The notes under the pieces: generated by a model | Database searches by the model: none | What the model was told of the DNA's origin: nothing | What the model saw: only the letters and a program-made list of their open reading frames with translations | Translations under genes and position numbers: made by a program | Part shown: piece after piece, positions 1 to 17,613 of the stretch | Layout of the letters: every line of letters starts with the position of its first letter | Position numbering within the stretch: the first letter of the stretch is position 1 | IMG/VR virus record: IMGVR_UViG_3300049893_002759 | Location: 4,056-68,055 of that record | Direction: 5' to 3' (one strand) | DNA length: 64,000 bases | Source of the DNA: a virus

Positions 1-1
1 A

Positions 2-3000
2 TCCCTGATACAACAGCTGGAAACTAATCCACGTACTCCCATAGCAGGATTTAATATCAGGGGATTCGATATTGGATTCATACAGCGCAGAGCTAGAACT
101 TATGGCTTAGAAAAACGATTTCTACAGACTATGAGAAATAGAGAAGTATTGGATCCTGCTAATTCAGTGAAAGATATTGTTGCATCTGCTATTAGTAGAC
201 ATGCAGATATAGGTACATTTAATCAAAGTTTGGGTGCAGCAAGTTGGCAAGAAGCTGAATCAGTATTTGGAGAACTTCCCTTTAGTAAAAGGCCAGTTGA
301 ATATAACCTTCTTGCTCAGGTAAAAGGTTATCTTACAGCTAATAGAGAAACAGCAATGTTTAAGGGATGGAAGCTAGAAGACTTATATAAGTTACTTCCA
401 GGAGAAGGTATAAAAGGTCAGGCTCACGAAGCTGCCACAGACATTAAGATGACTCAAAGAGTGATGCAAGCTGCTCGGAGTGGAGAACTAGAAAAAGAGT
501 TACAAAATCCAACTAAAGCTCTCCAATGGATGGAAACAGTAAAGGCCAGGGGCTTTGGGAAATTCCAAACCGAACGCTTGCTAGCGCAAGCGGATATAGA
601 TCAATTAGGATTAAAAGTACCACGTTGGTGGCAAACTAAACAAGCCAAAATTGCTGGACTAGGCCTAGCAGCCGTTGTGGCAGCAAGCTTGTTTTCTGGC
701 AAAGATGATGAATATAACACGATAGAAGGTCTTCCTCATGGTGGCTTTGCCCAATCAGGTAGATTACAGCTTACAGAGTTTGGTTCTGGTTATCGAGGTA
801 TTATAAAAATCAGTAAGCTTCTAACGCAGAATAATCCTTTTGCTACTAACTCTAGTGTAGCTAATGCTGGAGATATTCGTTATGCAGCAAAATATATTCG
901 AAATCTTGAACAGGGCTTTAAAAAGTCAGGTATGTCTCATGAAGTAGCACAGGCCTTTACAGATGTTAAAACAGAAATACGAACTGCTATAGAAGCAGGA
1001 CATAAAGATATCATTTCTGTATTTGAAGAAAATCTTCATAATACTGCTGATAGGCTGGGTGTTAGTCCTGTTTCTTATCTGAAAGAAATAATTAGACACG
1101 AAAACGTTCATGTGGGGATTCGTGTCAATAAACCATCTTTAGGTCGTGGCATCTTTGAATTGGATCAGCAAGAAAATCTTATTACAGATTTTGAAGAACT
1201 GAAAACATTTGCAAAAGAACATGGTATTAAACCGTCTTCGTTATATACTTGGTCTAGTAGATTACTTCAACATAATTATAATAATAAAAATGTTGATTTA
1301 TATTTAGAAGAAAGATTAGCTTGGGGTATTCAGCATGCTACACGAACAGGTTCTCGTGGGCGTCTTGCTGCAACAGGCATTCCTGCAGAAGGTCTTTATT
1401 CTGCAACTAAAGAACAGTTTATTCAATCTTATTCACCAAATTCACCTTTATCTTCATCAGAGTCTGAGTTTCTTGATGCTTTATACCAACCTCTTTCTAC
1501 AAAAGAAATGCAAGTTGGTTTAGAATTTGAACGACAAGGTCGAGTATCTCGTTTAGCGAAAGCCAAATATTTTAAAGAATGGATTGACGTTAAAACGCCA
1601 GTTACACAAAATGCGTTTTCTGGATTTGATGATAATTTCAATACAATTGAAGGATTAAATCACACCGGTATTGCTGGTGTTCGTCGTAAAAAGATTACAG
1701 ATTTTGGATCTGGTTTCACAACAGCTAAAGGTGTCGCAGAGCATTTAACTAAAACAGCTACTACTGGCCTTAAAGAAGTCGTTAATAGCGCTGTTGTAAA
1801 AGAAACTTTACAATTAGAATCTGAAGGAATAGCTCGTCAATTATTGGATGGCAGAGAGGCTGCCAATATAATAGAAGGTCTCGATCATTCAGGTATAGCT
1901 TCAATATTGCGTAAAAATACAGACTTTAGTTCTCCTGCTGTAGGAGCACGTACGCTACGTCGTGCTGAACGTTTATATAAATCGACAATGCGAGCTTCAT
2001 TGCAGGAAGCTGGATATAAAGGCAAAATAGATTGGTTAAGTCATATAGATGAAGATACTGGAGATATTGTATTAGCAGCTCGTAATGCTAAAGGAGAACG
2101 ACTAATGGGTATTCAGCGTTCTCTGCAAGAAGGAACAGTTAGTTTAACAAGTATAGAAATTGATCCAAGTTTGCGTGGTGGTCTTGGTCGTCGTTTTTAT
2201 GAACTAGAAGGCAGAATGCTTAAGCGTTTGGGCTTTGAGGGTGCTGAGATTACATCCCCGGTTGCTAATCCAGTAACAGGTAGAATGCAAGCTCAAATGT
2301 ATGGATCTAAACCAATGTCTATTTTTAATAGAGATCTTGAAGAAGCCTATGGTGTAAATCCAACTGAATTTCATGAAATGTTAATGTCCAAGAAAATGAC
2401 AAAAGAACAGTGGGAAGCTGTTGGACTTGCTCCTACTTTTGTGGGTCGTATTCCTACTCGTAATTCTGCAAATAACACAATAGACGGAATGGGCCATTCT
2501 GGTATTGCTCATAAGCTTAGAAAATTACTTTCGCCATTTGGATCTAAATGGGATGGACTTAGAAACTTTATACAAGGCACAGAAACGTTTCAAGAAATGA
2601 TATCCAGTAAAGGATTTCAGAAAGCCCTCAAAGATGCTGTTACTGTTAGACAATTAGGAATACCTGGTGCATTTGGTTCAGTACATGAAATGCGTGCAAC
2701 CTTTAGGGGTCGTGAATTTTCATTTGCTCGTAAAACTGGATCTATTCAAGAATTAGAAACTGATACTATGAACATGTTTTCAGAATCATTTGCCCCATCT
2801 GTATATTCACATTCCAAGTCTCATATAGATATGGAAATGTTTCAAGGAAAAGAATTTGCTGATGTTGCTAATCTTGATGCCAATAATATTACCGAACTAG
2901 TATCAAATGTTAAAGAAATGCATCGTAAGGGAATCGTTCACGGCGATCTTCATCAGGGTAATATTATGCTTACTAAAGAAGGTAATGTTGGCATTATTGA

Positions 3001-3298
3001 CTGGGGTACAGCAGGACCAACAGGATCTATACCAGATATTAGACTTAATGGTAAAGAAGTAACAGTGAATAATGTAGTTCAACGAAATGAAGCAATCGAT
3101 TGGAATAGAGTATTTAGAATTTCAAAACGATCTGGAAATTCACTTGAATCTTATCATGCCGCACCATTAGAAAGTTCTGAAATTAGATCTAAAACTGTTG
3201 TTGGTAGAAAGAAAAAGAGACAATCAGAATTACAAAAAGCTGCTTCTGCAACTGCTTGGATGCATGGTAAAAATGGTGGCAGAAAATCTAGGTTATAA
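2..3298 (+). CDS. Polyvalent multi-enzyme protein, 5'-truncated: DEDDh/DnaQ-like exonuclease + HExxH metallopeptidase + GNAT + kinase, separated by repeated linkers
   Basis: The frame is open from base 2 (SLIQQLETNPRTPIAGFNIRGFDIGFIQRR...), so the ATG at 131 is internal. Motifs: ExoII-like GFNIRGFD and ExoIII-like AHEAATD; RHENVH...EERLAW; SIEIDPSLRGGLGRRFY; GAFGSV...ARK...HGDLHQGNIM...IIDWG. Confidence 0.75.
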   Translation, partial: SLIQQLETNPRTPIAGFNIRGFDIGFIQRRARTYGLEKRFLQTMRNREVLDPANSVKDIVASAISRHADIGTFNQSLGAASWQEAESVFGELPFSKRPVEYNLLAQVKGYLTANRETAMFKGWKLEDLYKLLPGEGIKGQAHEAATDIKMTQRVMQAARSGELEKELQNPTKALQWMETVKARGFGKFQTERLLAQADIDQLGLKVPRWWQTKQAKIAGLGLAAVVAASLFSGKDDEYNTIEGLPHGGFAQSGRLQLTEFGSGYRGIIKISKLLTQNNPFATNSSVANAGDIRYAAKYIRNLEQGFKKSGMSHEVAQAFTDVKTEIRTAIEAGHKDIISVFEENLHNTADRLGVSPVSYLKEIIRHENVHVGIRVNKPSLGRGIFELDQQENLITDFEELKTFAKEHGIKPSSLYTWSSRLLQHNYNNKNVDLYLEERLAWGIQHATRTGSRGRLAATGIPAEGLYSATKEQFIQSYSPNSPLSSSESEFLDALYQPLSTKEMQVGLEFERQGRVSRLAKAKYFKEWIDVKTPVTQNAFSGFDDNFNTIEGLNHTGIAGVRRKKITDFGSGFTTAKGVAEHLTKTATTGLKEVVNSAVVKETLQLESEGIARQLLDGREAANIIEGLDHSGIASILRKNTDFSSPAVGARTLRRAERLYKSTMRASLQEAGYKGKIDWLSHIDEDTGDIVLAARNAKGERLMGIQRSLQEGTVSLTSIEIDPSLRGGLGRRFYELEGRMLKRLGFEGAEITSPVANPVTGRMQAQMYGSKPMSIFNRDLEEAYGVNPTEFHEMLMSKKMTKEQWEAVGLAPTFVGRIPTRNSANNTIDGMGHSGIAHKLRKLLSPFGSKWDGLRNFIQGTETFQEMISSKGFQKALKDAVTVRQLGIPGAFGSVHEMRATFRGREFSFARKTGSIQELETDTMNMFSESFAPSVYSHSKSHIDMEMFQGKEFADVANLDANNITELVSNVKEMHRKGIVHGDLHQGNIMLTKEGNVGIIDWGTAGPTGSIPDIRLNGKEVTVNNVVQRNEAIDWNRVFRISKRSGNSLESYHAAPLESSEIRSKTVVGRKKKRQSELQKAASATAWMHGKNGGRKSRL
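691..2545 (+). repeat. Four dispersed copies of a ~30-aa peptide linker, N[TI]I[ED]G[LM]xHxG[IF]AxxxRxxx(x)[TS][DEP]F[GS]S
   Basis: Copies at ~691-790 (DDEYNTIEGLPHGGFAQSGRLQLTEFGSG), ~1615-1714 (DDNFNTIEGLNHTGIAGVRRKKITDFGSG), ~1850-1933 (AANIIEGLDHSGIASILRKNTDFSS) and ~2462-2545 (ANNTIDGMGHSGIAHKLRKLLSPFGS). Confidence 0.9.
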
Positions 3299-3309
3299 TG
3301 GTGTGATAT

Positions 3310-4050
3310 ATGATTAATCCAAATATTACTAGAACTTCATTTGGCGGCCAGACTAGAACAAGTGTATTGCAACAAGCAGTTTTAGAAGCTAATCGTAAAG
3401 CTCCTGGATCGTTTAAGACTATAGGTAATAACTTTATTCCTAATAGCAATAAAATAGAATCTGATTTAACTAATCTTAAAGTACGTATTGGAATGGAACA
3501 AGCAACACGTGATCCTGGTGGAATATCAGGTAAAGCTTTCAAGGCTTTATATCCAGATAAATATGCTGCACTTCAAGAAAATATTTTAGATAAAAACAAA
3601 CAATTTTTAAGAGGGCAAATAGTTGGCGCTTCTTTAACCGGCAATAAAGCTGCTTTATCTGCTGCACAAAAATCTTTTACTGAAGCTATGAAAACAGGTG
3701 GCAGTCCTTTTAGTATGTCTATGCCCACAAGACTTGCATTAAATGCTAATTGGTCCGCTACTAAAATGGGAGCTAAAGTAGGAATGGGTGCTTTACGTGA
3801 AGCTAATATGGTTAGCCATGCTGTTCTTGGAACAGGCTTAAAACAAGTAGGTATTGCTGCTGCCCTAGTTGGTGGAATTGGATATGGAATAGGTAGTGCA
3901 TTAGGCATTTCTGGATCACAAGTTGCAGAAACAGCTTCTGCTGTTCATCAAGAATTTAAACAAGCTAGTAAACCAGTGTATGGTTATAGTGAAATTGGAC
4001 AATCTACTCAGGGTCTAGTTTTTGGATTGCATTCTAGGAGAACAAGATAA
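3310..4050 (+). CDS. Hypothetical Gly/Ala-rich protein with C-terminal hydrophobic helix (possible internal virion/ejection protein)
   Basis: 246-aa ORF; glycine-zipper-like segment GIAAALVGGIGYGIGSALGISG; translationally coupled to the next gene. Confidence 0.55.
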   Translation: MINPNITRTSFGGQTRTSVLQQAVLEANRKAPGSFKTIGNNFIPNSNKIESDLTNLKVRIGMEQATRDPGGISGKAFKALYPDKYAALQENILDKNKQFLRGQIVGASLTGNKAALSAAQKSFTEAMKTGGSPFSMSMPTRLALNANWSATKMGAKVGMGALREANMVSHAVLGTGLKQVGIAAALVGGIGYGIGSALGISGSQVAETASAVHQEFKQASKPVYGYSEIGQSTQGLVFGLHSRRTR

Positions 4051-4484
4051 TGTCTATTTTAATAAAATCTGCTTTCAATGGAATTGGTCAATTGCCTGGT
4101 GTAAGGCATTTAACGAAAGCTTTAGGAATTAAAGAAGGATTTAAAGGGCTTGGAGTTGCTGCTTCTATTGGTGTAGGCACTGTATTTGGATATTATAGCT
4201 ATGGTCATACATATGGAACAGGAACAGCAGCGCTGTATGGTATTGCTTCTGCTTATCCTATTACTGGAATTCCTCTTTTAATTCTTCAAGGTGGTAAAAC
4301 TATTGGAGATTTAACTTATAACTTACAAAAAAATAAACAACGTAGCTCATTTGCTAAAAATCAAATAAATGATAAATTTGGTACAATAAATGCTATGAGG
4401 CAGTATTCTGGACAAAAATTACGAAGAGATCATTCTTCAGTACAAAGAGTTTTAGGAAATGAAGCTGCCTATCTTCATCGATAA
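4050..4484 (+). CDS. Hypothetical membrane-associating protein
   Basis: 144 aa; TAATG overlap with the upstream gene; Gly-rich hydrophobic segments and a basic C-terminal half. Confidence 0.55.
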   Translation: MSILIKSAFNGIGQLPGVRHLTKALGIKEGFKGLGVAASIGVGTVFGYYSYGHTYGTGTAALYGIASAYPITGIPLLILQGGKTIGDLTYNLQKNKQRSSFAKNQINDKFGTINAMRQYSGQKLRRDHSSVQRVLGNEAAYLHR

Positions 4485-4497
4485 AGGAGTTACTAAT

Positions 4498-4953
4498 ATG
4501 CCATTGGGAACTAGTGTAATGAATTATGCCAGCAAAGCTGGTGGATATGCAATGCGTGGATGGAATGCCTATGCTGGTGCTATTGGTAATCGTACTTTAG
4601 CTGCAGCTGCTCTAGGTGGTATAAGCGGTGCCAGTTATGAGATGGCTGCTAATAATTCTGCCGGTACATTAACAGGTGGATTGAAAGGTTTTGCTATGGG
4701 AGCAGCAATGGGTGCTGGCGCTTATAGATATGGTGGAGCTATGTACCGTGGTGGTCGTTCTACTTATCGCGCGATATCTATGGGCAGAACTGGAGCTAAT
4801 TATTCAGGTGCCGGTCTTGCTGGACTAACAATGCGTGGAGCAGGTAGGCGTGCTTTCCGTCAGATTCGTAATGATGCTATGTCAGCATACTCTCATATTG
4901 GAAAAGGGATTAATAAAGGTTTTAATGCCTTTAAAGGACTACAGTCTACTTAG
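4498..4953 (+). CDS. Hypothetical basic Gly/Ala-rich protein
   Basis: AAAGGAG SD just upstream favours ATG 4498 over 4459; glycine-zipper-like GAAMGAGA and an Arg-rich tail. Confidence 0.55.
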   Translation: MPLGTSVMNYASKAGGYAMRGWNAYAGAIGNRTLAAAALGGISGASYEMAANNSAGTLTGGLKGFAMGAAMGAGAYRYGGAMYRGGRSTYRAISMGRTGANYSGAGLAGLTMRGAGRRAFRQIRNDAMSAYSHIGKGINKGFNAFKGLQST

Positions 4954-4961
4954 AGGATAAT

Positions 4962-6905
4962 GTGGCGTTAAATATATTGCAATCAGATGATGCTTGTCGT
5001 ACCTGTTTGAAAGGGTATGCTAAAAAACATGACTTCAAAGTAGGCGACAAGTTTGACATTCAATGTAGGGGTATTCCTAGACAGTATGTAAGTGATGCTG
5101 CAGCTGCTCTATTGACTAGTAACTTTAATGCTGAATTAGTACTTGATCCAGTCAAGTGGGCAGCTGAGGTTCTTGATTGGCATTGTCTTGATGCCGATTC
5201 AGATGTCTGGGCTAGAAAAAATCCAGATGAATATTTTCATCAAGTTGCAGAGAATCCAGGAAGACAAAGTAAATACCATCGTCCTTACCAAGCAACAATG
5301 TTACGTTGTTCTGCTAAATACAAAGTATTTCGTATTGGACGTCAGTCTGGAAAAACAGAGACTCTAGTAATCAGTATATTATTCCAGATGTTTACTAATA
5401 GTGGATTTAAAATTGTATTAATTACACCTTTTCAATCTCAAATTGATCTTATCTTCAAACGTATAGAAGATCTTATTTATTCAAATACTACACTTTCTAA
5501 TTCAATTAAAAGAAGTGTAAAAGCGCCTCAATATACTCTAACCTTACATAATGGTTCTCAAATTAAGGGCTTCACTGCAGGTACCAAGTCTGGTAACGGT
5601 GCAGCTTCTGTTCGTGGTCAAGACGCAAACATGCTAGTATTTGACGAAGCAGATTATCTTGATCGTGCAGATCTTGATGCCGCAATGGCTATTATTACTA
5701 ACTTTCCTGATGCAACTGTTTGGATGTCTTCTACTCCTACTGGACGTCGTGAGAAATTCTATGAAATTTGTCAGGATCGTGAATGGAAAGAGTTCCATTT
5801 TCCATCTCATGTAAATCCTAACTGGTCTGAAAAGCTAGACCGATTATTTAAAAAGAATCTTACAGCTATTGGTTACAAACACGAAATTCTTGCTGAATTT
5901 GGCGAACAAGAAGAAGGTGTATTTCAAGCACCATATGTTGATGCAGCTATACAAGATTATTCGTATGCATCTTGTATTCCATCTAATGGGTGGCTATATT
6001 CTATTGGTGTTGACTGGAACTCACCAAAAATTGGTACTACTATTTATGTTACTGGATTTAATCCATCCACTAATAAGTTTCGGACTGTTGAACATGCATG
6101 TGTTCAAAGAGCTGGTTGGACACAAACAGCTGCTTGTGAAAAAATTATTGAACTTCATCGTAAATGGCGTCCATTTGCTATTTATGTAGATCAAGGTTAT
6201 GGGTCGACTCAGATTGAAATCATACGTAAGTTTGGCTTCGATGCTCGTATTGATCCTGAAAAAGGACCATCTCATATTGACTCTCGTTTGCCAAAAACAC
6301 TAAAGCCTTATGACTTTGGTAGTGCAATAGAAATTAGAGATCCATTTACAAAAGAATTACGGAAGAAACCTGCTAAAGGGTTTTTGGTAGAAAGCGCTGT
6401 GCGTCGATTTGAGTCTGGGGACATTATGATTCCTAAACAAGATGAGCAGCTTAAAAAAGAACTATTAGGATATATCGTTAAACATGTTACTGTTACTGGA
6501 CAAGTAGTTTATACAACAGTTGACGATGCAGTTGGTGACCATAATCTTGATGCATTTATGTTGTCTTTAGTAGCTTTTACATTAGAAAAAGGACCAATGG
6601 GTAAACCTGTTCTTAATCACAAAACTCTGTTTACTCCGATAGATAATCGTTCTATTGATGAAACAAATAAAGATGCTGCATTAAAAATACATAATGAAAA
6701 AGATAGACTTCTTGAACGTGAACAAAATAAGCCGGCTGATCGTGATTTTAAAACTACTGCTCCTGTTTCTAACTTATGGAGCTGGCCTGGATTTGGTTAT
6801 GATGCACCACGACCTATTATTAGTGGAGGCTTTCATGGAAGAAGACAATCGACTACAATATTTAAACGTCCAACTAATAACGGAAAACGACGGAATTCTT
6901 TTTGA
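4962..6905 (+). CDS. terL: Terminase large subunit
   Basis: Walker A GRQSGKT, Walker B LVFDEAD, motif III SSTP, nuclease motifs IGVDW and DHNLDA; GTG start with AGAGGA SD. Confidence 0.93.
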   Translation: MALNILQSDDACRTCLKGYAKKHDFKVGDKFDIQCRGIPRQYVSDAAAALLTSNFNAELVLDPVKWAAEVLDWHCLDADSDVWARKNPDEYFHQVAENPGRQSKYHRPYQATMLRCSAKYKVFRIGRQSGKTETLVISILFQMFTNSGFKIVLITPFQSQIDLIFKRIEDLIYSNTTLSNSIKRSVKAPQYTLTLHNGSQIKGFTAGTKSGNGAASVRGQDANMLVFDEADYLDRADLDAAMAIITNFPDATVWMSSTPTGRREKFYEICQDREWKEFHFPSHVNPNWSEKLDRLFKKNLTAIGYKHEILAEFGEQEEGVFQAPYVDAAIQDYSYASCIPSNGWLYSIGVDWNSPKIGTTIYVTGFNPSTNKFRTVEHACVQRAGWTQTAACEKIIELHRKWRPFAIYVDQGYGSTQIEIIRKFGFDARIDPEKGPSHIDSRLPKTLKPYDFGSAIEIRDPFTKELRKKPAKGFLVESAVRRFESGDIMIPKQDEQLKKELLGYIVKHVTVTGQVVYTTVDDAVGDHNLDAFMLSLVAFTLEKGPMGKPVLNHKTLFTPIDNRSIDETNKDAALKIHNEKDRLLEREQNKPADRDFKTTAPVSNLWSWPGFGYDAPRPIISGGFHGRRQSTTIFKRPTNNGKRRNSF

Positions 6906-6914
6906 GGTGCTGTA

Positions 6915-7364
6915 ATGGGTATAGGCATTTATACTGAAGCAAATTCAGAAACATTATTATCACAAGATGATCTATTTACGAAGCCATTTGCGATCACATT
7001 TGATGGACGCACTGGTGGGTACAAGGAGGTGAAGCTCTTTTTACGCAACGATGATGTTACTCGTTACTATACTGATCTTATCGTTTCGTTAGAAGACCTT
7101 CAGGATCCTCCAGTTACTTCTAGACCAGAAGATGGTTTTGTTTGGAAATTATCATATGGTGACATTAAACCCACGTTTAATGATTGGGTTAATACTCCAG
7201 CTGCTAATTCATTAACAATACCTGTCAGTATTGGTGGATTAGGTGATCCAGATGTTTCTACTTATCTACCATTTTGGGTATTTATTCAAATTCCTCCAAA
7301 CCTTGATATACAAGTTATAACTGGAGTAAAATTTGTAATACAAGGAAATGAGGCGTTAATTTAA
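6915..7364 (+). CDS. Hypothetical beta-rich virion protein
   Basis: 149 aa with GAGGTG SD, in the structural operon. Confidence 0.6.
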   Translation: MGIGIYTEANSETLLSQDDLFTKPFAITFDGRTGGYKEVKLFLRNDDVTRYYTDLIVSLEDLQDPPVTSRPEDGFVWKLSYGDIKPTFNDWVNTPAANSLTIPVSIGGLGDPDVSTYLPFWVFIQIPPNLDIQVITGVKFVIQGNEALI

Positions 7365-8044
7365 TGACTATTGGTTTTAGTGCAAAGAATATTTTGGATC
7401 GAAGACCAAATATTGTTTTTGTTGCTCCTCGTTCTGGATTAACCATTCCTGAACCAGAGCGCAATACCGCTGCACTTACTCCAAAAGAAGAACGCGTTTC
7501 GCAATTAATTCAATCATTAAAAAATACAGCTGCAACAGCTGATGCAATTGAAGTACTAGTAGCTGAACGTGCTAAAAATGAAGTTCTTAAACTTAATTTG
7601 AGTAATCCAGAAGATGCTGTTGTAGCCCAGGCTGCTGCACGTATTTTCCCACAACAAGCTATTAATAAAAATGGTTTTATTCATGTACCTGAAATTACAT
7701 TTGATATGTATAACAAATGTATTCAAGACATGAAAGAAGCAGGTAAAGTTGCAGGCACTAAACAACAAACTAAACAAACTGGACCACTCAGAGCAGATAA
7801 AACTGATTTTGGTGGAGGTACGTCTGATCGACGTCCTGATATTAATCAAACCAATGTCCCATTTGCTCCAATTGATCTTCCTGCTTTTATCGCTGCTGGT
7901 ATTCCTATTCTATTTAACATGCTATTCCCCCTTATTAATGGGGCTATTAAAAAGGATGTTGTTGGACATACTCACCCAATTGTTACACCAACAGATCCAG
8001 TTCCAGTACCTTCTGGGCCAGGTATCCCAGTATCTCCGGTGTAA
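7364..8044 (+). CDS. Hypothetical protein
   Basis: 226 aa; coupled start; hydrophobic segment and Pro-rich C-terminus. Confidence 0.6.
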   Translation: MTIGFSAKNILDRRPNIVFVAPRSGLTIPEPERNTAALTPKEERVSQLIQSLKNTAATADAIEVLVAERAKNEVLKLNLSNPEDAVVAQAAARIFPQQAINKNGFIHVPEITFDMYNKCIQDMKEAGKVAGTKQQTKQTGPLRADKTDFGGGTSDRRPDINQTNVPFAPIDLPAFIAAGIPILFNMLFPLINGAIKKDVVGHTHPIVTPTDPVPVPSGPGIPVSPV

Positions 8045-8046
8045 TC

Positions 8047-9570
8047 ATGGAAGCAACTCATGCAGCAGATTGTGGAGCTATAATCAAAGCTTTTGAAAAA
8101 TATCTATTAAGCGCTCCATCTGAAGGTGGAATTATCGGAACAGTAATGCCTAAATTAGCGGCTATTAGTTCTAATTCTACAGCTTCAGCAGCACATTTAG
8201 AAAATGCAGTTAATCCTCCTATTCCACAAGAAATTTTAGGAGCTTTTAATCAATCTGGTACTCCAGAAATATCGGTTGATATTCCAGGACAACTCAATGC
8301 TCTAGGTGCTCAAGTAGTAGATATTAAAAATTGGCAACAATGGTTAGCTAGTTGTATCCCTTGTTCATTACGAGTAGACTTCCGCGCTGAATTACTTAAT
8401 AAGTTGGACGATCAACTCTTAGACATTATGGAAGAAATGGTTAATCAATATTTAAAACAATTATCGTTTATCTTAAATTTATTAAATGCTACAGATGTAT
8501 ATTCAGATGTATGTCCTTTATTAGCAATAACTAGTGATATTTGTATTCCAGACTTACAACGTATTATTTCATTACTAGCATCTATGCTTTATAGAATGAC
8601 AGTAAGAGAACTAACTGGTGTAGACTTAATGAAGTTATTGGTTTTACCAATCTTTCAACCTATTTTCTCTGGGCTGGTTGGCATACTTGGACAATATAAA
8701 ATATTAATTACCGATCCTCTTAATTGTGTAGTTGGAAACTTTAGTGCTCAATTAGGCAAACTACAAACTACATCAACTTTTAACGAGTCGCTTGCTCGAG
8801 AATTGACTAATAAAGCAAATGCTTTAGGTCTAGTTCGTGAAGAAACTCAAAAAGCTGATACATTTAAAGCATTAAATGAAGCGCGGCAGCCTTTTTCATC
8901 AATTGATGAAGGTATTGAAGCAATGCAAAATGCAACTGGTTCAGCAGCCTTTCATTTAAGACGCCTTATGATGACAGGTATATTTGAAGTAGAAAACTTA
9001 TTAGATGAATTAAAAAGTGAATTATCATCGTTTCTTGGTATTAATAACAAAGAAACAGTAGATTTTCTACTTAATCAGTATCAAAAATTATTAATTGTGA
9101 GACTAATTACATTTGTTGCAGCTTTAGTTAAAGCTACTACTGTAGGTTTCAATTGTAATTTTAGCGATCCAGCAGCAGCAGAAGATACTGTAGGTAAATT
9201 CCTAAATGATTTCTTAGGGCCAAATGCACCCGTTATTGTTCGTAATGATTCAACAACTGGTGATATTCAGTTATTTGTAAATCCAACTGTTACAGATTCA
9301 TTAAAAAATATTCAACAATTTCGAACAACGCCAACTTTAGTTCAAGCTGGAATCTTTTCTACTCTGGGTCGAGTAGCACCTCAAACACCTACTGTTGGAT
9401 CTATTATTACACCTACAGGCAATAAAGAGGTAGATGCCGCATTTGATGCTATAATGACCCAGTCAAGTCAAGCAGTTACAATTAAACCTCGTTGTGTTTT
9501 TGAACCAGGTGAGGTAAGTAGCAATAAACTTGCACAATGGATCGCTGAATTAAATGCAACAGGAGTTTAA
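8047..9570 (+). CDS. Hypothetical helical protein with scattered Cys
   Basis: 507-aa ORF between terminase and portal; CIPC, VCP and ICIP motifs. Confidence 0.6.
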   Translation: MEATHAADCGAIIKAFEKYLLSAPSEGGIIGTVMPKLAAISSNSTASAAHLENAVNPPIPQEILGAFNQSGTPEISVDIPGQLNALGAQVVDIKNWQQWLASCIPCSLRVDFRAELLNKLDDQLLDIMEEMVNQYLKQLSFILNLLNATDVYSDVCPLLAITSDICIPDLQRIISLLASMLYRMTVRELTGVDLMKLLVLPIFQPIFSGLVGILGQYKILITDPLNCVVGNFSAQLGKLQTTSTFNESLARELTNKANALGLVREETQKADTFKALNEARQPFSSIDEGIEAMQNATGSAAFHLRRLMMTGIFEVENLLDELKSELSSFLGINNKETVDFLLNQYQKLLIVRLITFVAALVKATTVGFNCNFSDPAAAEDTVGKFLNDFLGPNAPVIVRNDSTTGDIQLFVNPTVTDSLKNIQQFRTTPTLVQAGIFSTLGRVAPQTPTVGSIITPTGNKEVDAAFDAIMTQSSQAVTIKPRCVFEPGEVSSNKLAQWIAELNATGV

Positions 9571-9576
9571 TACTAT

Positions 9577-12500
9577 ATGAAGATCTTTGGATTTAACTTT
9601 GGAGAAAAAATTTTTGCTCCACTTGTAACTCCTGACACTCAAGTGTCACTTCGTAAACAGGATGCATCTCCAACAATACGTCCTGAATTGAAGTCTATTT
9701 CTATTCCAGAAAACAAAAAACCAGCTAATATTCCACCTGTTGCTTCTAAGGTACTTGCTTACAATCAAGTAGGGGCTCGTAGAGGGCAATTTAATGAATC
9801 AGAATATGATCTAGCTTTAATCAACCGTATTGAAGATACTGATTCTTATGTACATCAAGCTTTTGTCAAAAAAGTAGGCCTGATGTTTAAAGAAGGTTAT
9901 GATCTTGTTGGTGCTGATCCTAAAACTATTCAGTACATTAAATTACGTTTTGCTCAAATTGCTAGAGCTACAAACACCCCCACAGATGAGTTATTGCGTT
10001 CATTAGGCAGATCATTAATTAAAAAATCAAATGCCTTTCTTGTCAAAGCTAGAAAGGAATCAGCTTCAGGTGGACGTTCTCGTATAGTACCTGGTACTTC
10101 TAAAGAGTTAGAACCAGTAGCAGGTTATTTTATTGCTCCTGCAGAAACAATGCAGTATGAAGCAGACAAAAATGGTCGTGTTACTCGATGGAAGCAACAA
10201 TTGCCAGATGGCCAGTTTACTTACTTTAGGCCAGAAGATGTTATTCATTTCTATTTTAATAGAAAAGATGGATTCATTTATGGTACTCCAACTATAGTAC
10301 CTGTTATTGATGATATCCGTTCTCTTCGTAAAATTGAAGAGAATATTGAATTGTTGGTATATCAACATTTATTTCCATTATTCCACTACAAGATTGGAAC
10401 TGATGACTTTCCGGCTACAGTAGATGAACAAGGAAACGATGAAATTGATTTAGCAAAACGAGAAATACAAGTTATGCCAGCAGAAGGTGGATTAGTCACC
10501 TCTCATCGTCATGAAATATCATTAATTGGTGCAGAAAACAGATCGTTGCGTGCAGAAGGTTATCTTGAGCACTTTAAAAAGAGAGTTTTTTCTGGTTTAG
10601 GTATTTCTGCAGTTGATATGGGTGAAGGCGAATGTTATTCAGCTGATACAGAAACCTTAACGGAAAATGGATGGAAATTCCACTGGCAAATTGATCATAC
10701 AACTGAACGTATTGCTACATATAATCCTGCAACTAATAAGATTGAATTCAATTTTGCTAACTACAAGCATGAATCTCATTATCGTGGACCAATGTTTCAT
10801 TTTACAAATGGAGAAGAACTTAATGTATTGGTAACACCAAAACACGATATGTGGCTACAAAATGTAGTCCGTGTAAGTGTATGGGGTAAAGTTCATGCTG
10901 AAGATTTGTTAACTAAACCAAACTTACATTGCAACATGTTGTTATCTACTGCATTTGATGAAGAAGAAGTATCGCAAGTTTTTCCTGATGAACTCATTGA
11001 ATCTTGGGCTACTCTTGCGGGCTGGATTGTAGGTATTGGTGAATATGTCCCTGCAACAAATCAAATTATGTTGAAAACTAATAAGATTCCTCGTGGAGAG
11101 CATCCTCTTGCTAGGGTCTTTAGCGAATTACATATTCCTTTTAATGTAACTAAAGTAACAAGTCATGCTCGTCGTCATCTTGAGATTACATTTGATGCTG
11201 ATGAATATTCTGGACAATTGAAAAAATACCTTAAATCTGAAGGCCATTCTGTTGTAAATGAAGTTTTAAAGCTTCCTATTGCAGCAAGAAAAATTGTTGC
11301 AGACGAAATGTTAGCATCTGGTGGTACTAGTAAGGGATTTAAATACATTAAGAAATATGGCAAGGCTCGTCACTGGTGGTTTGTATCTTCTAGTCATACA
11401 GTCTTAGATATTGTTCAAACAATACTTCTTTCTTGTGGTTATTTAGCTGTAAAAAAGAAAGGTCAACATAAAGACAAGTCTTTTGAATATGTTAATGTTC
11501 GCTGCGCATTGCGTAGACAACAATTATCTCCTATTAATCAAGAAACTATTAAGCAGGTTTCATATGATGGAACTATTTACTGTTACAACGTGCCAAATCA
11601 TCTATTTTTAACTAGACGACAAGGCTGTGTAGCTATTAATGGTAATACTGCTAATCGTGCTACTTCAGACAATATGTCCCGCAACTTAGTAGACTCTGTA
11701 AAAGATATTCAACGTGTTATGGAGTCACAGTTTAGTGCATTCATAATTAATGAATTATTGCTTGAATCTACATTTGGTTCAGATGTACTTAATGACGAAT
11801 CTCGCGTATCTCTTAAATTTAAAGAGATCGATCTGGATTATCAGATTAAAAAAGAAAATCATTATGCTGACCAATTTACTAAAAATACTATTTCTCATCA
11901 TGAAGCTCGTATTGGTATGGGTCGTCAACCTATGCGTATGCCAACAGCTGAAGAAATTGATGGTAATCCAAATATTGCTGAAAATTATCCAGAATGGTAT
12001 GGAACATTTTGGAAACTTATTGATGAACCTAAAGCTCTTATTCAAGCTATCGACGAACCTTATTCTGCAGCAGCCATTACAGCCGCTGCCAATAAAGGAA
12101 CTGAGGTAACTTCTGCTAATATTACAGAAGCCGGCGAACAACAAAAAGAACATGAAGTAGCTCTAGAAGCAGAAAAAGGTAAGGCTAAGGTTGCTATTGC
12201 TAAATTACGCCCTAAACCAGCTGCCAAAAAGAAAGATTCTTTCTTAAATGTAAAATTTGAAGCTTTAGAAAGTGACACGATTAGGATGATTAATCAAGGT
12301 AGTTTTTCTAATGACTGGTTAAAACATCTAGCATTCATGTCTGAGACGGATATGATTCGTGATTTGCGTACAAAGGCTATGACAGCATTTGCTTCTGGTT
12401 ATAGATCTATCAATCCACGTAGTGACCAACAAATTAATGCTACTATGCGCGCGCGTAGTAAAATAGAAAATCGTGTTAATTTTTATGTTCAACGCTTAAT

Positions 12501-12828
12501 TCGTCAAACTTTAGATGCAATTAAACGTCAAAATATTGATACTCTGGAGAAAGATGTTAGAATTCAAAAAGTTAAGGCAGCGTTTGAAGCATTTCGTTTC
12601 CGTAATGACTTTATTGAAGATGTGGAGGTCCGTAAAGCGTACAACTTAGGAGTTATTGAAGCAGCACGAAGTCTCGGGCATACTCAATGGACACTGGCTG
12701 TACCACATGATTCTTGTTCTGGATGTAAATTAGCATCTCAAACAATTCACCAAATTGGTGATAGTCTTGATTTAGAGGACGTACCTCCTCTGCATGCTAA
12801 TTCTAGAAGTCAAATAAAGATTCTATGA
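9577..12828 (+). CDS. Portal protein with an intein and a C-terminal MuF/head-morphogenesis-like region
   Basis: Portal-like FRPEDVIHF...YGTPTI segment; position between terminase and protease; C-terminal CSGC...VPPLHANSRS resembles the MuF PPxHPNCR motif. Confidence 0.82.
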   Translation: MKIFGFNFGEKIFAPLVTPDTQVSLRKQDASPTIRPELKSISIPENKKPANIPPVASKVLAYNQVGARRGQFNESEYDLALINRIEDTDSYVHQAFVKKVGLMFKEGYDLVGADPKTIQYIKLRFAQIARATNTPTDELLRSLGRSLIKKSNAFLVKARKESASGGRSRIVPGTSKELEPVAGYFIAPAETMQYEADKNGRVTRWKQQLPDGQFTYFRPEDVIHFYFNRKDGFIYGTPTIVPVIDDIRSLRKIEENIELLVYQHLFPLFHYKIGTDDFPATVDEQGNDEIDLAKREIQVMPAEGGLVTSHRHEISLIGAENRSLRAEGYLEHFKKRVFSGLGISAVDMGEGECYSADTETLTENGWKFHWQIDHTTERIATYNPATNKIEFNFANYKHESHYRGPMFHFTNGEELNVLVTPKHDMWLQNVVRVSVWGKVHAEDLLTKPNLHCNMLLSTAFDEEEVSQVFPDELIESWATLAGWIVGIGEYVPATNQIMLKTNKIPRGEHPLARVFSELHIPFNVTKVTSHARRHLEITFDADEYSGQLKKYLKSEGHSVVNEVLKLPIAARKIVADEMLASGGTSKGFKYIKKYGKARHWWFVSSSHTVLDIVQTILLSCGYLAVKKKGQHKDKSFEYVNVRCALRRQQLSPINQETIKQVSYDGTIYCYNVPNHLFLTRRQGCVAINGNTANRATSDNMSRNLVDSVKDIQRVMESQFSAFIINELLLESTFGSDVLNDESRVSLKFKEIDLDYQIKKENHYADQFTKNTISHHEARIGMGRQPMRMPTAEEIDGNPNIAENYPEWYGTFWKLIDEPKALIQAIDEPYSAAAITAAANKGTEVTSANITEAGEQQKEHEVALEAEKGKAKVAIAKLRPKPAAKKKDSFLNVKFEALESDTIRMINQGSFSNDWLKHLAFMSETDMIRDLRTKAMTAFASGYRSINPRSDQQINATMRARSKIENRVNFYVQRLIRQTLDAIKRQNIDTLEKDVRIQKVKAAFEAFRFRNDFIEDVEVRKAYNLGVIEAARSLGHTQWTLAVPHDSCSGCKLASQTIHQIGDSLDLEDVPPLHANSRSQIKIL
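10633..11646 (+). mobile_element. Intein (338 aa) with degenerate LAGLIDADG-type homing endonuclease
   Basis: N-terminal junction GE|CYSADTETLTENGWK; block B VTPKH; block F/G YDGTIYCYNVPNHLFLTRRQGCVAINGN|T. Removing it rejoins DMGEGE to TANRATS. Confidence 0.9.
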
Positions 12829-15038
12829 AGGACGGTTTAATTATGAATAAACATGAATTTGGATATCGTACAGATCGAGGATGGCATATTGATGATCGTT
12901 ATGACTTTCAAGTTATAAGTCATTCTGATAATGATCTTGCTCAAATACGCGATGATTACATGGGCGCGTTTAAGCCAGGCGATCCATCAACACCTCATTC
13001 TTCTGGACTTGGTGTTGTTGCTAATACAGATGGGCAACAAGCAAGAACTGGATTAATCATAAAGATTGCTGCTACTCATTCAGGTTTAATAACCAGAAAT
13101 AATGGTCTTTATCTACCTGATAAAATGCGTGCTGCTGTAGGAACTTGGACTGATCATTATCAAAAACCTATTCAGCTTCACCACAGTGATTCGAGTGACC
13201 CTATTGGGCGAGTCATTGCTGCTCGTTATGTTGACACTTCTAGTCCAGTAGTAGATCGTTTCCAAAATTCTGTTTTACGTGATCAATTTAATAATCAAAT
13301 TGGCCACGCAGATAGAAAATTCTGGGATAAATTCATTAGCGACAGAACATCGTTTATCGATAAGTTACAAATGTTAAGACTAATGGATTCTATTTTGAAT
13401 GATCCTCACTATCAAGGTGTTGGATATATTGAGCTTACTGCTAACATTACAGATCCAACAGCTATTCAAAAAGTTCTTGATAAGCGTTATATTACAGGGT
13501 CTGTAGGTGCTGTTTCAGATAAAGCAGTATGTTCTACTTGTAATACCAACTGGTTAGAAGAAGAACATTGTGGGCATCGTCCTGGACGTGTATATGATGG
13601 TAAAAAGTGTATTGTTATTACAGGCAATCTAGAATATGATGAATATTCATTTGTCAATACGCCTGCAGATAGACATTCTGGCGTAATTGATGCAGGACAG
13701 ATTAAAAATTCTGTTCAAGATGCAACTGACAGATCCGTTCGATACTTTCCTGTATTTAACGCACTGAAGGAGGACTCTACTATGAGTGATACAAAGACCG
13801 AAACAATTAAGGACTCGACTGTGGCGACTCCTGAACCAACAGAGACCACTGCAGATGTAGTTGTAGACAATTCAGCAACTGTTCAAGATGCTGTTCAGCC
13901 ATCTATTGATGAACAAATTACAGTTTTGATGGATAAACTTTTGTCTACTGGTTTGACTGAAGATGAATCTGAACAACTTTACCAATTTCAGCTTAATGAA
14001 ATGGATCAAGGTATTGTTGAAGATGCTAAACTTTCTTCTGAAAAACGCAAGAAACTTGCGTCTTCAACCTTTTGTGGTCCTAACAAATCTTTTCCAGTTC
14101 CAGATTGCGCTCATGTAGTTGCAGCACGTCGTCTAATTGGTCGTTATAAAGGTGAAGGATCTAAAGACTCAATTCTTGCTTGTGTAGCTAGAAAAGCTAA
14201 GGCACTTGGTTGTGATTCTACTAAAGACTCTATAAAAGATTCTGTAAAAGACAATGCTTTAGTTCCTGTAAACGGTCCAACTCATTCTGATGTTCCAGAT
14301 CCAAAAGCTGTAAAAGCAGCAGAATTACTAGAGCTTTTGCTTGCTGCATTTGGTGATGGACCTGAAGCTACATCGGATTACAGTCTAAATAATTCTGATA
14401 AAGAGAAATTAACACAATTAGTTCGTAAGTTATTAGCATTTAGTAAAGATTCTTTACATGAAATTCTTGTTGAGGAAAAGGTAATTGATTCTTCTGTTGT
14501 AGAAGACAGAGAGAGTTTGATTACTGAAGTGGCTAAAAATGAAGAGCTTATTGGTGATCTTCGTGATCAATTAACAGCACTTAGAAAGGAACTAAAGGCC
14601 GCATATGAAGATGTAGTTACCCTTGAAGATCAATTAATTTCTTCTCGAGAAATAGTTCGTTCTGTTAAAACTGAAAAGGCATCTCTACTTCATATGTTAG
14701 ATGGTTCTTTTACAGATGCTATAAAAGACAGTGTTGCGTCTTTAACTGACGAGGCATTAGATTCTGCAATTGCAACCTTATCAACAAAAGTTGACATATC
14801 AAAAATTGCTGATAAGCTTAACAGTGGACTCTCAAGAACACCAAATGAGACAGTTGAAGTTCCAGCAGGGTTGACCGAGCCTACTGCTGTAACCCAACCA
14901 ACCAATAAGCCTACCTATGCTACCCAGCAAATGGTAGATGAAGTTTACCGCCGTACATTACTTAGCCAAGGACATACAGCTGCACAAGCATTTTATACAG
15001 ATGCTGTTAAGCGTGGCCTAGCTAAACCAAAAGAGTAA
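12825..15038 (+). CDS. Prohead maturation serine protease fused to scaffolding region
   Basis: IQLHH...PIGR, GSVG and EYSFVNTPAD resemble HK97/herpes-fold prohead proteases; CSTC...CGHRPG Zn-like insert; acidic coiled-coil C-terminal half. The start may be ATG 12843. Confidence 0.8.
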   Translation: MKDGLIMNKHEFGYRTDRGWHIDDRYDFQVISHSDNDLAQIRDDYMGAFKPGDPSTPHSSGLGVVANTDGQQARTGLIIKIAATHSGLITRNNGLYLPDKMRAAVGTWTDHYQKPIQLHHSDSSDPIGRVIAARYVDTSSPVVDRFQNSVLRDQFNNQIGHADRKFWDKFISDRTSFIDKLQMLRLMDSILNDPHYQGVGYIELTANITDPTAIQKVLDKRYITGSVGAVSDKAVCSTCNTNWLEEEHCGHRPGRVYDGKKCIVITGNLEYDEYSFVNTPADRHSGVIDAGQIKNSVQDATDRSVRYFPVFNALKEDSTMSDTKTETIKDSTVATPEPTETTADVVVDNSATVQDAVQPSIDEQITVLMDKLLSTGLTEDESEQLYQFQLNEMDQGIVEDAKLSSEKRKKLASSTFCGPNKSFPVPDCAHVVAARRLIGRYKGEGSKDSILACVARKAKALGCDSTKDSIKDSVKDNALVPVNGPTHSDVPDPKAVKAAELLELLLAAFGDGPEATSDYSLNNSDKEKLTQLVRKLLAFSKDSLHEILVEEKVIDSSVVEDRESLITEVAKNEELIGDLRDQLTALRKELKAAYEDVVTLEDQLISSREIVRSVKTEKASLLHMLDGSFTDAIKDSVASLTDEALDSAIATLSTKVDISKIADKLNSGLSRTPNETVEVPAGLTEPTAVTQPTNKPTYATQQMVDEVYRRTLLSQGHTAAQAFYTDAVKRGLAKPKE
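13782..15038 (+). CDS. Putative nested in-frame scaffolding protein (internal start)
   Basis: AAGGAGG SD at 13767-13773 precedes the in-frame ATG 13782 (MSDTKTET...), right after the protease domain. Confidence 0.6.
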   Translation: MSDTKTETIKDSTVATPEPTETTADVVVDNSATVQDAVQPSIDEQITVLMDKLLSTGLTEDESEQLYQFQLNEMDQGIVEDAKLSSEKRKKLASSTFCGPNKSFPVPDCAHVVAARRLIGRYKGEGSKDSILACVARKAKALGCDSTKDSIKDSVKDNALVPVNGPTHSDVPDPKAVKAAELLELLLAAFGDGPEATSDYSLNNSDKEKLTQLVRKLLAFSKDSLHEILVEEKVIDSSVVEDRESLITEVAKNEELIGDLRDQLTALRKELKAAYEDVVTLEDQLISSREIVRSVKTEKASLLHMLDGSFTDAIKDSVASLTDEALDSAIATLSTKVDISKIADKLNSGLSRTPNETVEVPAGLTEPTAVTQPTNKPTYATQQMVDEVYRRTLLSQGHTAAQAFYTDAVKRGLAKPKE

Positions 15039-16341: not shown

Positions 16342-17613
16342 ATGCCCGGCAATATTAACGACTTTGTAAGCTTAGATGAGCTTAAAGCCAATGTAAAAGA
16401 TCAGGCGTCTATGGAATTCGTATGGCGCACTGGTAAAGACCCAGTAAGCGGTCGTGGTGTAAACATTAAGGACGCTTTGTCAGTTCCTGATGCTCCACTT
16501 CTTCTTCCTAAGGTTATCTCTAACGTTGTTCGTGAAGCAGCAGAACCTTTGTTAATTGGCACCAGCCTTCTACAAAGAATCAACTATTCTTATGGACAAA
16601 CTATCACCTTCCCAGCAATCGGAGCACTAGTTGCTGCTGATATTGCAGAAGGTCAAGAATACCCAGAACAAAGACTAGCAATGGGTGGAGCAACTGTAAC
16701 TGCACAAATTGGTAAGAGCGGTCTAGCTGTTAAAGTAACTGAAGAAATGGTTCGCTATTCCCAATTTGATGTAATCGGTATGCACCTTCGTGCAGCTGGT
16801 CGTGCTCTAGCACGTCACAAAGAAGTTAAGATCTTTAACATGATCAAGGCTCTTGGTGTTTGTGTATTTGACAATGCGCAGCCAGCACGCTCTATGAAAG
16901 GCGTTACCACTGGTCGTGCAATCGATGGATCTCCAAACGGTTCAGTAACCATGGACGATATCTTTGATTGTTTTGCACAAGTTATGGTTCAGGGTTTTAT
17001 GCCAGATACTATCCTCATGCATCCATTAACTTGGGCAATGTGGGTTAAAGATCCAACTCTTCGTGCATTTGCATTAATGAACGGTGGAGGAACATTCTTT
17101 GCTAACTGGACTGGACAAGTTAATCAGCAATATGCTGCTAACGCAAGCCAGGGCGGATTGGGTATCGGCGCAGGTCAGAACATTGTAGAAGGTGGCAACG
17201 CAGCTGGATTGGCAGCAAGTCAGCTAACCGCCTTTAATCCACAAATGAATTCTGCTCCACAACTACCTGGTTATCTTGGTATGAGCTTCCGTATCCTTGT
17301 TAGCCCATTAGTTCCATGCGATCCACGTCGCAAGCTAACTGACATCTTTATGTTTGATAGCCGTGAACTAGGAGCTCTCATTGTTGACGAAGAAGTTACC
17401 ACTGAAGAATTTGTTGATCCTAAAGTTGAACTACGTAAGATCAAACTTCGTGAACGTTATGCGGTAGCAGTCCTTAACGAAGGACAAGGTATTGCTACTA
17501 TTAAGAACGTACGTATCGTACCAAACGAAATCGTACTTCCAGCACAAACTACTATCGATGTGGCTTCTAGTGCATTAGGTCCAATTTCTCCAACTGCTGA
17601 CGTACTCAGCTGA
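16342..17613 (+). CDS. Major capsid protein (HK97 fold)
   Basis: AGGAGG SD; LLLPKVISNVVREAAEP, IAEGQEYPE, KSGLAVKVTEEMVRYS, PDTILMHP and ERYAVAVL are capsid-like; followed by a terminator. Confidence 0.88.
   Translation: MPGNINDFVSLDELKANVKDQASMEFVWRTGKDPVSGRGVNIKDALSVPDAPLLLPKVISNVVREAAEPLLIGTSLLQRINYSYGQTITFPAIGALVAADIAEGQEYPEQRLAMGGATVTAQIGKSGLAVKVTEEMVRYSQFDVIGMHLRAAGRALARHKEVKIFNMIKALGVCVFDNAQPARSMKGVTTGRAIDGSPNGSVTMDDIFDCFAQVMVQGFMPDTILMHPLTWAMWVKDPTLRAFALMNGGGTFFANWTGQVNQQYAANASQGGLGIGAGQNIVEGGNAAGLAASQLTAFNPQMNSAPQLPGYLGMSFRILVSPLVPCDPRRKLTDIFMFDSRELGALIVDEEVTTEEFVDPKVELRKIKLRERYAVAVLNEGQGIATIKNVRIVPNEIVLPAQTTIDVASSALGPISPTADVLS

Follow-up and report, generated by a model that had tools for sequence, protein, structure and literature searches.

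Modular enzymes joined by a conserved 38-residue peptide in a putative polyvalent protein of an uncultured phage

Kinase, GNAT and metallopeptidase domains are among those of the polyvalent proteins described from portal-terminase phages in the main text of Iyer et al. (2017, PMC5512222), where packaging in the capsid and proteolytic release are predicted for these proteins. Polyvalent kinases that lack the C-terminal lobe are described there as well. Here we analyze a putative protein of this type that is encoded by a single open reading frame (ORF) at positions 2..3298, on the + strand, of a 64,000-nucleotide stretch of viral DNA. This stretch, the window, comprises bases 4056-68055 of a 68,055-nt viral contig (IMG/VR record IMGVR_UViG_3300049893_002759; G000:C1:4056-68055). 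The ORF joins four enzyme-like modules with intact catalytic motifs, a DEDDh exonuclease, an HExxH peptidase-like module, a GNAT-fold module and a minimal protein kinase, and each module boundary carries a copy of one 38-residue peptide that we refer to as the joint. At least 605 protein clusters have the same peptide at every boundary between modules. It is less variable than the terminase, and this joint family offers a defined handle on the loading, separation and exchange of polyvalent parts.

The likeness to polyvalent proteins extends to several features. At least two unrelated enzyme domains, all of them catalytic, share one polypeptide in a portal-terminase phage, the architectures are mosaic (163 module clusters in 163 proteins), and the kinase is truncated without a C-terminal lobe, as in the polyvalent kinases. 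The protein differs in having a conserved inter-domain peptide, a fixed exonuclease head and a basic tail, features that we did not find described in PMC5512222. The words ‘SNase’, ‘linker’ and ‘spacer’ have 0 occurrences each in that main text, which is separate from the supplements that may list this kinase group. No MuF, ArdC-N, MPTase or LPD signature domain was detected in the protein by Pfam at E ≤ 1. An earlier reading of the window, made from the letters alone (the sequence-only reading), had proposed a modular, polyvalent-type multi-enzyme protein, and this is borne out by the domain matches and by the swapping of modules among relatives. The protein appears to be a polyvalent protein of a linker-punctuated kind and a member of a large family in uncultured phages.

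Other phages deliver enzymes with the help of short peptides. The internal proteins of T4 and the T4 protein Alt carry a capsid-targeting sequence and are cut by the prohead protease gp21, and the inner-body proteins of phiKZ are cut by gp175. All of these are encoded by separate genes, each with one N-terminal tag of ~10 residues, and the T4 and phiKZ proteases both cut after Glu. The modules described here would resemble these proteins if they too are loaded via a short peptide, trimmed and injected, and the joint contains I-E-G. The difference is that here one chain bears 2-7 internal, putative 38-residue signals. Cargo-loading peptides of encapsulins, which act as short disordered tethers for arbitrary enzymes inside an HK97-fold shell, offer another parallel. 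The G-S core of the joint, flanked by hydrophobics (T-D-F-G-S-G-W), may be loosely reminiscent of these peptides, but the encapsulin peptides are terminal, shorter and borne on single proteins, whereas the joints are internal. Finally, gp0.7 of T7, an early host-takeover protein kinase (PMC5512222), is, like the kinase module, a phage Ser/Thr-type kinase, and it acts on host proteins. The likeness is one of kinase type, and gp0.7 is the product of a separate early gene outside any multi-enzyme chain.

A peptide repeated at the module boundaries

The reading frame is open at the left edge of the window. In the whole contig it spans L002:3832-7353, begins with a GTG start and encodes 1173 amino acids, of which the window holds the last 1098. 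The remaining 75 residues (223 nt, from a start at G000:C1:3832) lie to the left and include the first exonuclease motif, DIETGG. The truncated single frame of the sequence-only reading agrees with the ORF list, and leftward extension adds these 75 residues.

Four copies of the joint occur in the protein, two canonical and two degenerate. Joint 1 (689..802, canonical, LFSGKDDEYNTIEGLPHGGFAQSGRLQLTEFGSGYRGI) scores 73.6 bits against the joint hidden Markov model (HMM) and is included in the joint alignment A2, and joint 2 (1613..1726, canonical) scores 62.6 bits. The degenerate copies are joint 3 (1838..1948, ending FSSP; 39.9 bits) and joint 4 (2447..2560, NNTIDGMGHSGIAHKLRKLLSPFGSKW; 41.5 bits). 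All lie on the + strand, as do the modules between them. The consensus derived from the 70 copies in alignment A2 is xFSGxDDxYNTIEGLxHxGxAxxxRxxxTDFGSG, with a mean column identity of 51%; a slightly fuller pattern for the peptide is FSGKDDxYNTIEGLxHxGxAxxxRxxxTDFGSGW. A search of all six frames of the window found no joint motif beyond these four copies. Joints 2 and 3 are separated by a 37-residue spacer (1727..1837), an ‘empty slot’ that has no relative among the modules of the family.

In the AlphaFold2 (AF2) model, the joints have predicted local distance difference test (pLDDT) values < 50, beside a GNAT core of ~ 90. The model suggests that the joint behaves as a short linear motif rather than as a folded domain. 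Across 31 non-redundant loci, the mean pairwise identity is 55% for the joint vs 43% for the core of the terminase large subunit (TerL), and in 91% of the 465 locus pairs conservation is higher for the joint, in a comparison for which joints were chosen by HMM score, which biases joint identity upward. For a disordered peptide that recurs within this protein, is restricted to it and exceeds the terminase in conservation, the simplest account is that a conserved reader is encoded by the phage.

The joint is the most diagnostic feature of the polyprotein, and the sequence-only reading listed it separately from its entry on this protein, which does not mention it. A full-text literature search on joint strings returned nothing relevant, and we did not find the joint described. 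Among GenBank phages, tblastn gave no match for the whole protein and none for the joint.

Enzyme modules and their exchange among relatives

The sequence-only reading had named an exonuclease, a zincin, a GNAT and a kinase and had located their motifs. All of the motif positions are confirmed. The names exonuclease, GNAT and kinase are backed by profile or fold matches. The zincin call draws on invariant motif residues and weak fold matches, with no Pfam or PDB sequence match.

The in-window part of the N-terminal DEDDh (DnaQ-like) exonuclease module, which comprises residues 1-289, occupies 2..643, with the motifs GFNIRGFD at 47-70 and HEAATD at 425-442. An alignment of 11 family proteins shows no variation at the Exo I (D-x-E), Exo II (D) and Exo III (H-x4-D) residues D13, E15, D98, H217 and D222, and the module matches PHROG 192, ‘DNA polymerase exonuclease subunit’ (E 3.1e-6). 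Matches to PDB sequences are weak (9mrd, E 0.012; DnaQ 8h18, E 0.17), and the 9mrd alignment lines up the motifs. The match to Pfam DNA_pol_B_exo1 (E 0.21) falls under the cut-off, and PF00929 or PF03104 is detected in some relatives.

Module 2 (803..1612) is metallopeptidase-like, with RHENVH at 1094-1111 and EERLA at ~ 1307-1321 (HENVH is residues 441-445 and the EE pair residues 511-512 of the protein). The HExxH and the downstream EE..A are invariant in seven aligned modules (H137, E138, H141, E207 and E208 in the numbering of alignment A4), in keeping with the zincin/gluzincin pattern in which a downstream Glu is the third ligand, and the module matches the HExxH-A HMM of the family with an E of 7.7e-9. 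A profile search against PDB sequences was empty, and Pfam gave nothing relevant. The AF2 model is poor (mean pLDDT 49.6), and with this model Foldseek gave nothing at E ≤ 0.001. VIA-align matches are weak (Z 5.2 to 3), with top rows that are mostly zincin-fold hydrolases, among them YbeY, 3e11 (a predicted zincin), ArdC (Z 4.0), SPRTN, M30, PprI (IrrE/PprI), selecase and CapP. Atlas leads at ≤ 0.80 are LPD23 (0.79), Tox-MPTase4, Peptidase_M78 and Peptidase_M91. Module 2 may be described as peptidase-like, but it is not established as a peptidase.

The GNAT-fold, acetyltransferase-like module 4 lies at 1949..2446. Acetyl-CoA motif A (R/Q-x-x-G-x-G/A) is present as LRGGLGRRF near position 2177, and both glycines are invariant in 11 modules. 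A profile built from these 11 modules retrieves the GNATs 5jph (E 7.8e-4) and 1y9k (E 0.016) from the PDB, and six of its nine rows are named acetyltransferases or RibT. The AF2 model has a confident core, and Foldseek finds 30 PDB matches to it at E ≤ 0.001. All matches listed at that threshold are either acetyltransferase domains (p300, KKT23, 1y9k, the SAGA HAT module) or the acetyl-CoA-binding GNAT-type domain of M. tuberculosis ICL2. Pfam gave no match for the GNAT module of the window protein at E ≤ 10, and one of the 11 members matches Acetyltransf_7 at E 0.1. Relatives carry 13 homologous modules.

The chain of enzymes ends with module 5 (2561..3202), a minimal protein-kinase-like domain with a G-loop, K986, HGD..N (HGDLHQGN at 2939) and DWG (2999). 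It matches APH in Pfam with an E of 3.2e-9. The RIO1 and ABC1 matches also exceed the Pfam cut-offs, and that to Pkinase falls exactly on its cut-off. Kinase profile A1 retrieves 1476 PDB sequences at E ≤ 1, and the best 60 of the 1476, from E 1e-8, are all Ser/Thr kinases. Residues G961, G964, G967, K986, E994, H1055, D1057, N1062 and D1075 either do not vary or are kept in ≥ 90% of the aligned sequences. Only ~ 96 residues follow DWG, ~ 30 of them belonging to the tail shared by the family, and the PDB alignments end shortly past the DFG region. The canonical eukaryote-type C-terminal lobe, with its APE motif and F to I helices, is absent. With so few residues after DWG the usual lobe is missing, and the kinase is therefore minimal or atypical.

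Two further elements recur in the family. A hydrophobic, glycine-zipper-like segment (AKIAGLGLAAVVAASLF, 644..694, from sequence and hydropathy) leads and runs into joint 1. Across the 163 relatives that were mapped, the median maximum Kyte-Doolittle value, computed in a 17-residue window, is 1.45 before the first joint (n = 123) vs 0.11 before later joints (n = 339). The C-terminus is a basic tail (3203..3298 with the stop codon; ..KKKRQSELQKAASATAWMHGKNGGRKSRL) that ends in ..WMHGKNGGRKSRL and is retained in relatives regardless of the last module. A 30-residue HMM of the tail, run against the ORFs of the related loci, matches joint-bearing ORFs only and nearly all of these at the C-terminus. 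A tag shared between this tail and the C-terminal motif of the downstream 246-residue protein was considered and dropped, as the tail HMM matches no neighbor at E ≤ 1.

A word-indexed search recovered 31 relatives of 724-1952 amino acids. The joint profile (42 positions), run against 1.84 billion cluster representatives, matches 605 at E ≤ 1e-3, 422 at E ≤ 1e-10 and 151 at E ≤ 1e-30. The best 150 of these 605 are 511-2454 amino acids long. In the 163 mapped proteins there are 2-7 joints per protein, and the internal modules have a median length of 224 amino acids, 30 of 339 being shorter than 60. Clustering at 60% mutual coverage sorts the 631 modules of at least 40 amino acids into 163 clusters, of which 120 have a single member; single-linkage clustering with BLAST merged families via multi-domain segments. 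The largest clusters are kinase (110 modules, 81 of them C-terminal), exonuclease (89, of which 83 N-terminal) and SNase (46). By HMM census, a kinase is present in 118 of the 163 proteins, an exonuclease in 96, an SNase in 53, a second type of N-terminal module in 40, an HExxH-A or HExxH-B module in 28 and a GNAT-like module in 17. Most family modules are without a Pfam match. In a Pfam scan of 35 proteins, the matches are to SNase (10), ABC1 (10), Pkinase (8), RNase_T (2), DnaJ (2) and an intein with LAGLIDADG (1).

The sequence-only reading predicted that domains would be swapped among related phages, and this is the pattern found. The same joints flank GNAT, HExxH-A, HExxH-B, SNase or unclassified modules in relatives whose exonucleases are 50-78% identical to the one studied here. 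Their module sets include GNAT only, HExxH-B, SNase with HExxH-B and HExxH-A, and SNase with F10, GNAT and HExxH-A. In the closest relatives, P0002, P0003, P0004 and P0009, exonuclease, GNAT and kinase are linked by the same joints with no peptidase module. Relatives mostly keep the N-terminal exonuclease, the hydrophobic segment and the basic tail, while the enzymes between are exchanged like cassettes. A scan of genome contigs with exonuclease patterns, which do not test for joint-bearing prophages, gave three weak exonuclease-only matches.

Possible roles of the joints

The polyprotein gene lies just upstream of the TerL gene (4962-6905 on the + strand; PHROG 2, E 1.1e-30), as the sequence-only reading had placed it. 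We compared 43 related viral loci, obtained by scanning viral contigs with the family alignment (a single-protein query gave none). The joint is present in all 43. It is confined to a single ORF in 42, and the remaining locus (L034) has a second ORF with one weak match of 10.2 bits. TerL is downstream on the same strand, 1.2-4.2 kb away, in 40 of the 43 loci, and the portal gene is next where the locus is long enough. In the window, the gaps between the polyprotein gene, the three small genes that follow it and TerL are ≤ 12 nt, and no terminator-like site was found on the + strand between the polyprotein gene and TerL.

We see about an even chance that the protein is a capsid-loaded train of enzymes whose joints are loading and/or cutting signals. 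The polyprotein would be made together with the head and packaging genes and then loaded into the capsid. The joint would serve as a short linear signal that is read by a conserved phage partner. The likeliest reader may be the head-maturation protease, and the train would then be cut up into its separate enzymes; alternatively, the procapsid interior may be the reader, and the joints would then load the train. The enzymes would enter the host with the DNA, and once inside they may degrade nucleic acid and modify or cut host proteins, for takeover or counter-defense.

Should the joint be a loading or cutting signal, this would explain the delivery and rapid re-assortment of enzyme payloads by large phages. 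It would also provide a sequence rule for finding new effector modules in a family in which 120 of the 163 module clusters are singletons, and it could yield a portable tag with which foreign proteins are brought into phage heads. A more sweeping version, drawn by analogy with encapsulin cargo-loading peptides and T4-type capsid-targeting sequences taken together, is that the joint is a universal ‘load and release’ signal, such that any enzyme cassette flanked by it would be tethered in an assembling HK97-type procapsid and then freed. We regard this version as possible but doubtful. If true, it would amount to plug-and-play injection of changing enzyme sets across hundreds of phage lineages.

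Several points weigh against a capsid-loaded train. Virion packaging, joint cleavage, injection and anti-defense action are steps that we infer beyond gene order, and no cultured or GenBank phage matches the protein or the joint by tblastn. At 38 largely invariant residues, the joint is far longer than the known prohead-protease sites (L/I-x-E in T4 and S/A/G-x-E in phiKZ), and it may have some other role. No head-maturation protease was identified in the window, where the lead is a 737-residue protein with weak Atlas matches to Peptidase_S78. The distantly related phage ME3 has genes for membrane proteins and a lysozyme ahead of TerL, and therefore the small neighbors of the polyprotein gene may be lysis genes rather than genes for ejection proteins. 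Contig ends also cluster just upstream: in 29 of the 43 loci, which were not de-replicated, the contig stops inside the ORF or ≤ 6.4 kb ahead of it, and the contig studied here ends 3.8 kb upstream (L002:1-3831). This pile-up may reflect a physical end of the genome, the boundary of a repeat or an assembly that broke off in a hypervariable gene. If the end is physical, the polyprotein gene could enter the host first and be an early gene.

An early gene is also what the main rival explanation may involve. The protein would remain unpackaged. It would be synthesized during infection, perhaps as an early product of the leading end of the genome, and act as a multi-enzyme for host takeover that the hydrophobic segment anchors in the membrane. 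Its joints would act as flexible tethers, bound by a common factor of the host or the phage. Such a protein can be likened to the T7 gp0.7 kinase and the pre-early nuclease functions of T5, an example of early takeover, combined in one chain. The hydrophobic segment ahead of the first joint and the pile-up of contig ends agree with this explanation, and so does the combination of a kinase with nucleases, which is typical of early takeover and has a precedent in the T7 kinase (PMC5512222). However, the gene and TerL belong to one tightly packed stretch of a single strand with no terminator-like site between them, 40 of 43 loci keep the gene next to those for packaging and the head, and the contig ends, four of which fall inside the ORF, may be assembly breaks. 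We consider an unpackaged, membrane-tethered takeover enzyme rather improbable, although it is the main rival. Were the joint merely a tether, the family would still be a large catalog of phage enzymes.

The embedded HExxH module could itself be the reader, cleaving the joints in cis or trans. Its HExxH and EE residues are invariant in the module family, its weak fold matches include the zincins ArdC, SPRTN, IrrE/PprI and CapP-type peptidases, and autoproteolytic metallopeptidase domains were proposed for polyvalent proteins by Iyer et al. (PMC5512222). Self-cleavage is nevertheless unlikely. The HExxH module cannot be the general joint reader because an HExxH-A or HExxH-B module is present in only 28 of the 163 joint-bearing proteins, and the closest relatives (P0002, P0003, P0004 and P0009) have the same joints without it. 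Complex prediction for the HExxH module and the joint returned a score of 0.01, which gives no verdict. It is very unlikely that the joint matters purely as DNA, as a patch of homology shared between phages for cassette recombination, with a peptide that has no role. Module swapping, empty slots and tandem joints would all suit such a patch. Yet the peptide is conserved although the DNA of joints 1 and 2 is no more than 72% alike in a stretch of 39 nt, which argues that selection acts on the peptide and not on DNA homology, and a peptide that is more conserved than TerL where TerL identity is ~ 40% points to purifying selection on amino acids.

Neighboring genes and the source phage

The gene order around the polyprotein is a 285-residue gene, the polyprotein, three membrane-type genes, TerL and the portal gene. 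The first of these, on the + strand at L002:2913-3770, is directly left of the window. By locus comparison it is conserved, lying directly upstream of the polyprotein in 35 of the 43 loci at 25-50% identity, and it has no PHROG, Pfam or PDB match. That it is the small terminase subunit would be a guess. The sequence-only reading had put the polyprotein at the head of its operon, and this does not hold, in that the polyprotein gene is not the first gene of the + strand array.

The three genes between the polyprotein and TerL (3310..4953, + strand) are tightly packed and encode Gly/Ala-rich proteins of 246, 144 and 164 amino acids with hydrophobic segments. Neither PHROG nor Pfam gave a family match for any of them. 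Two or three such small genes occur at the same place in most related loci, with the conserved C-terminal motifs ..STxGLVQGLHRGRH and ..GNEAxxxH.

The portal gene is encoded at 9577-12828 (PHROG 9232, 1.3e-50). Its ORF is 1083 amino acids long, of which only residues 64-381 align with the portal PHROG; the long remainder toward the C-terminus has weak matches to unrelated PHROGs (ribonucleotide reductase and thymidylate synthase). The 737-residue gene follows at 12825-15038, between the portal and capsid genes, and its product has no Pfam match and no usable PDB sequence match. Its Atlas neighbors carry Peptidase_S78, the HK97-type prohead protease, at 0.91-0.92, which makes it a weak lead as a candidate maturation protease. 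The major head protein gene is at 16342-17613 (PHROG 3922, 1.2e-24).

CheckV estimates the completeness of the source contig at 36%, and the longest contigs with relatives, the carriers of P0003, P0020 and P0025, are ~ 190-200 kb. DNA near-identical to positions 1-9000 of the window occurs in freshwater and freshwater-sediment metagenome runs from three studies, one of them possibly the source. There are no RNA runs among the listed sequencing runs that hold such DNA. Contigs from four of the DNA runs, compared with positions 1-9000, gave short, low-depth pieces with no joint within 1-3298.

By tblastn, TerL is 27-35% identical to the TerL of Moorella phage MTATph1, Acinetobacter phage ME3 and Bacillus phage 0305phi8-36. 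The source appears to be a large, uncultured freshwater phage that is distantly related to the MTATph1/ME3/0305phi8-36 group of large phages. The TerL open frame is 1.9 kb here and 3.0-4.4 kb in 12 relatives (L003, L010, L011, L013, L014, L015, L017, L023, L024, L030, L032 and L038), and the long frames suggest insertions such as inteins.

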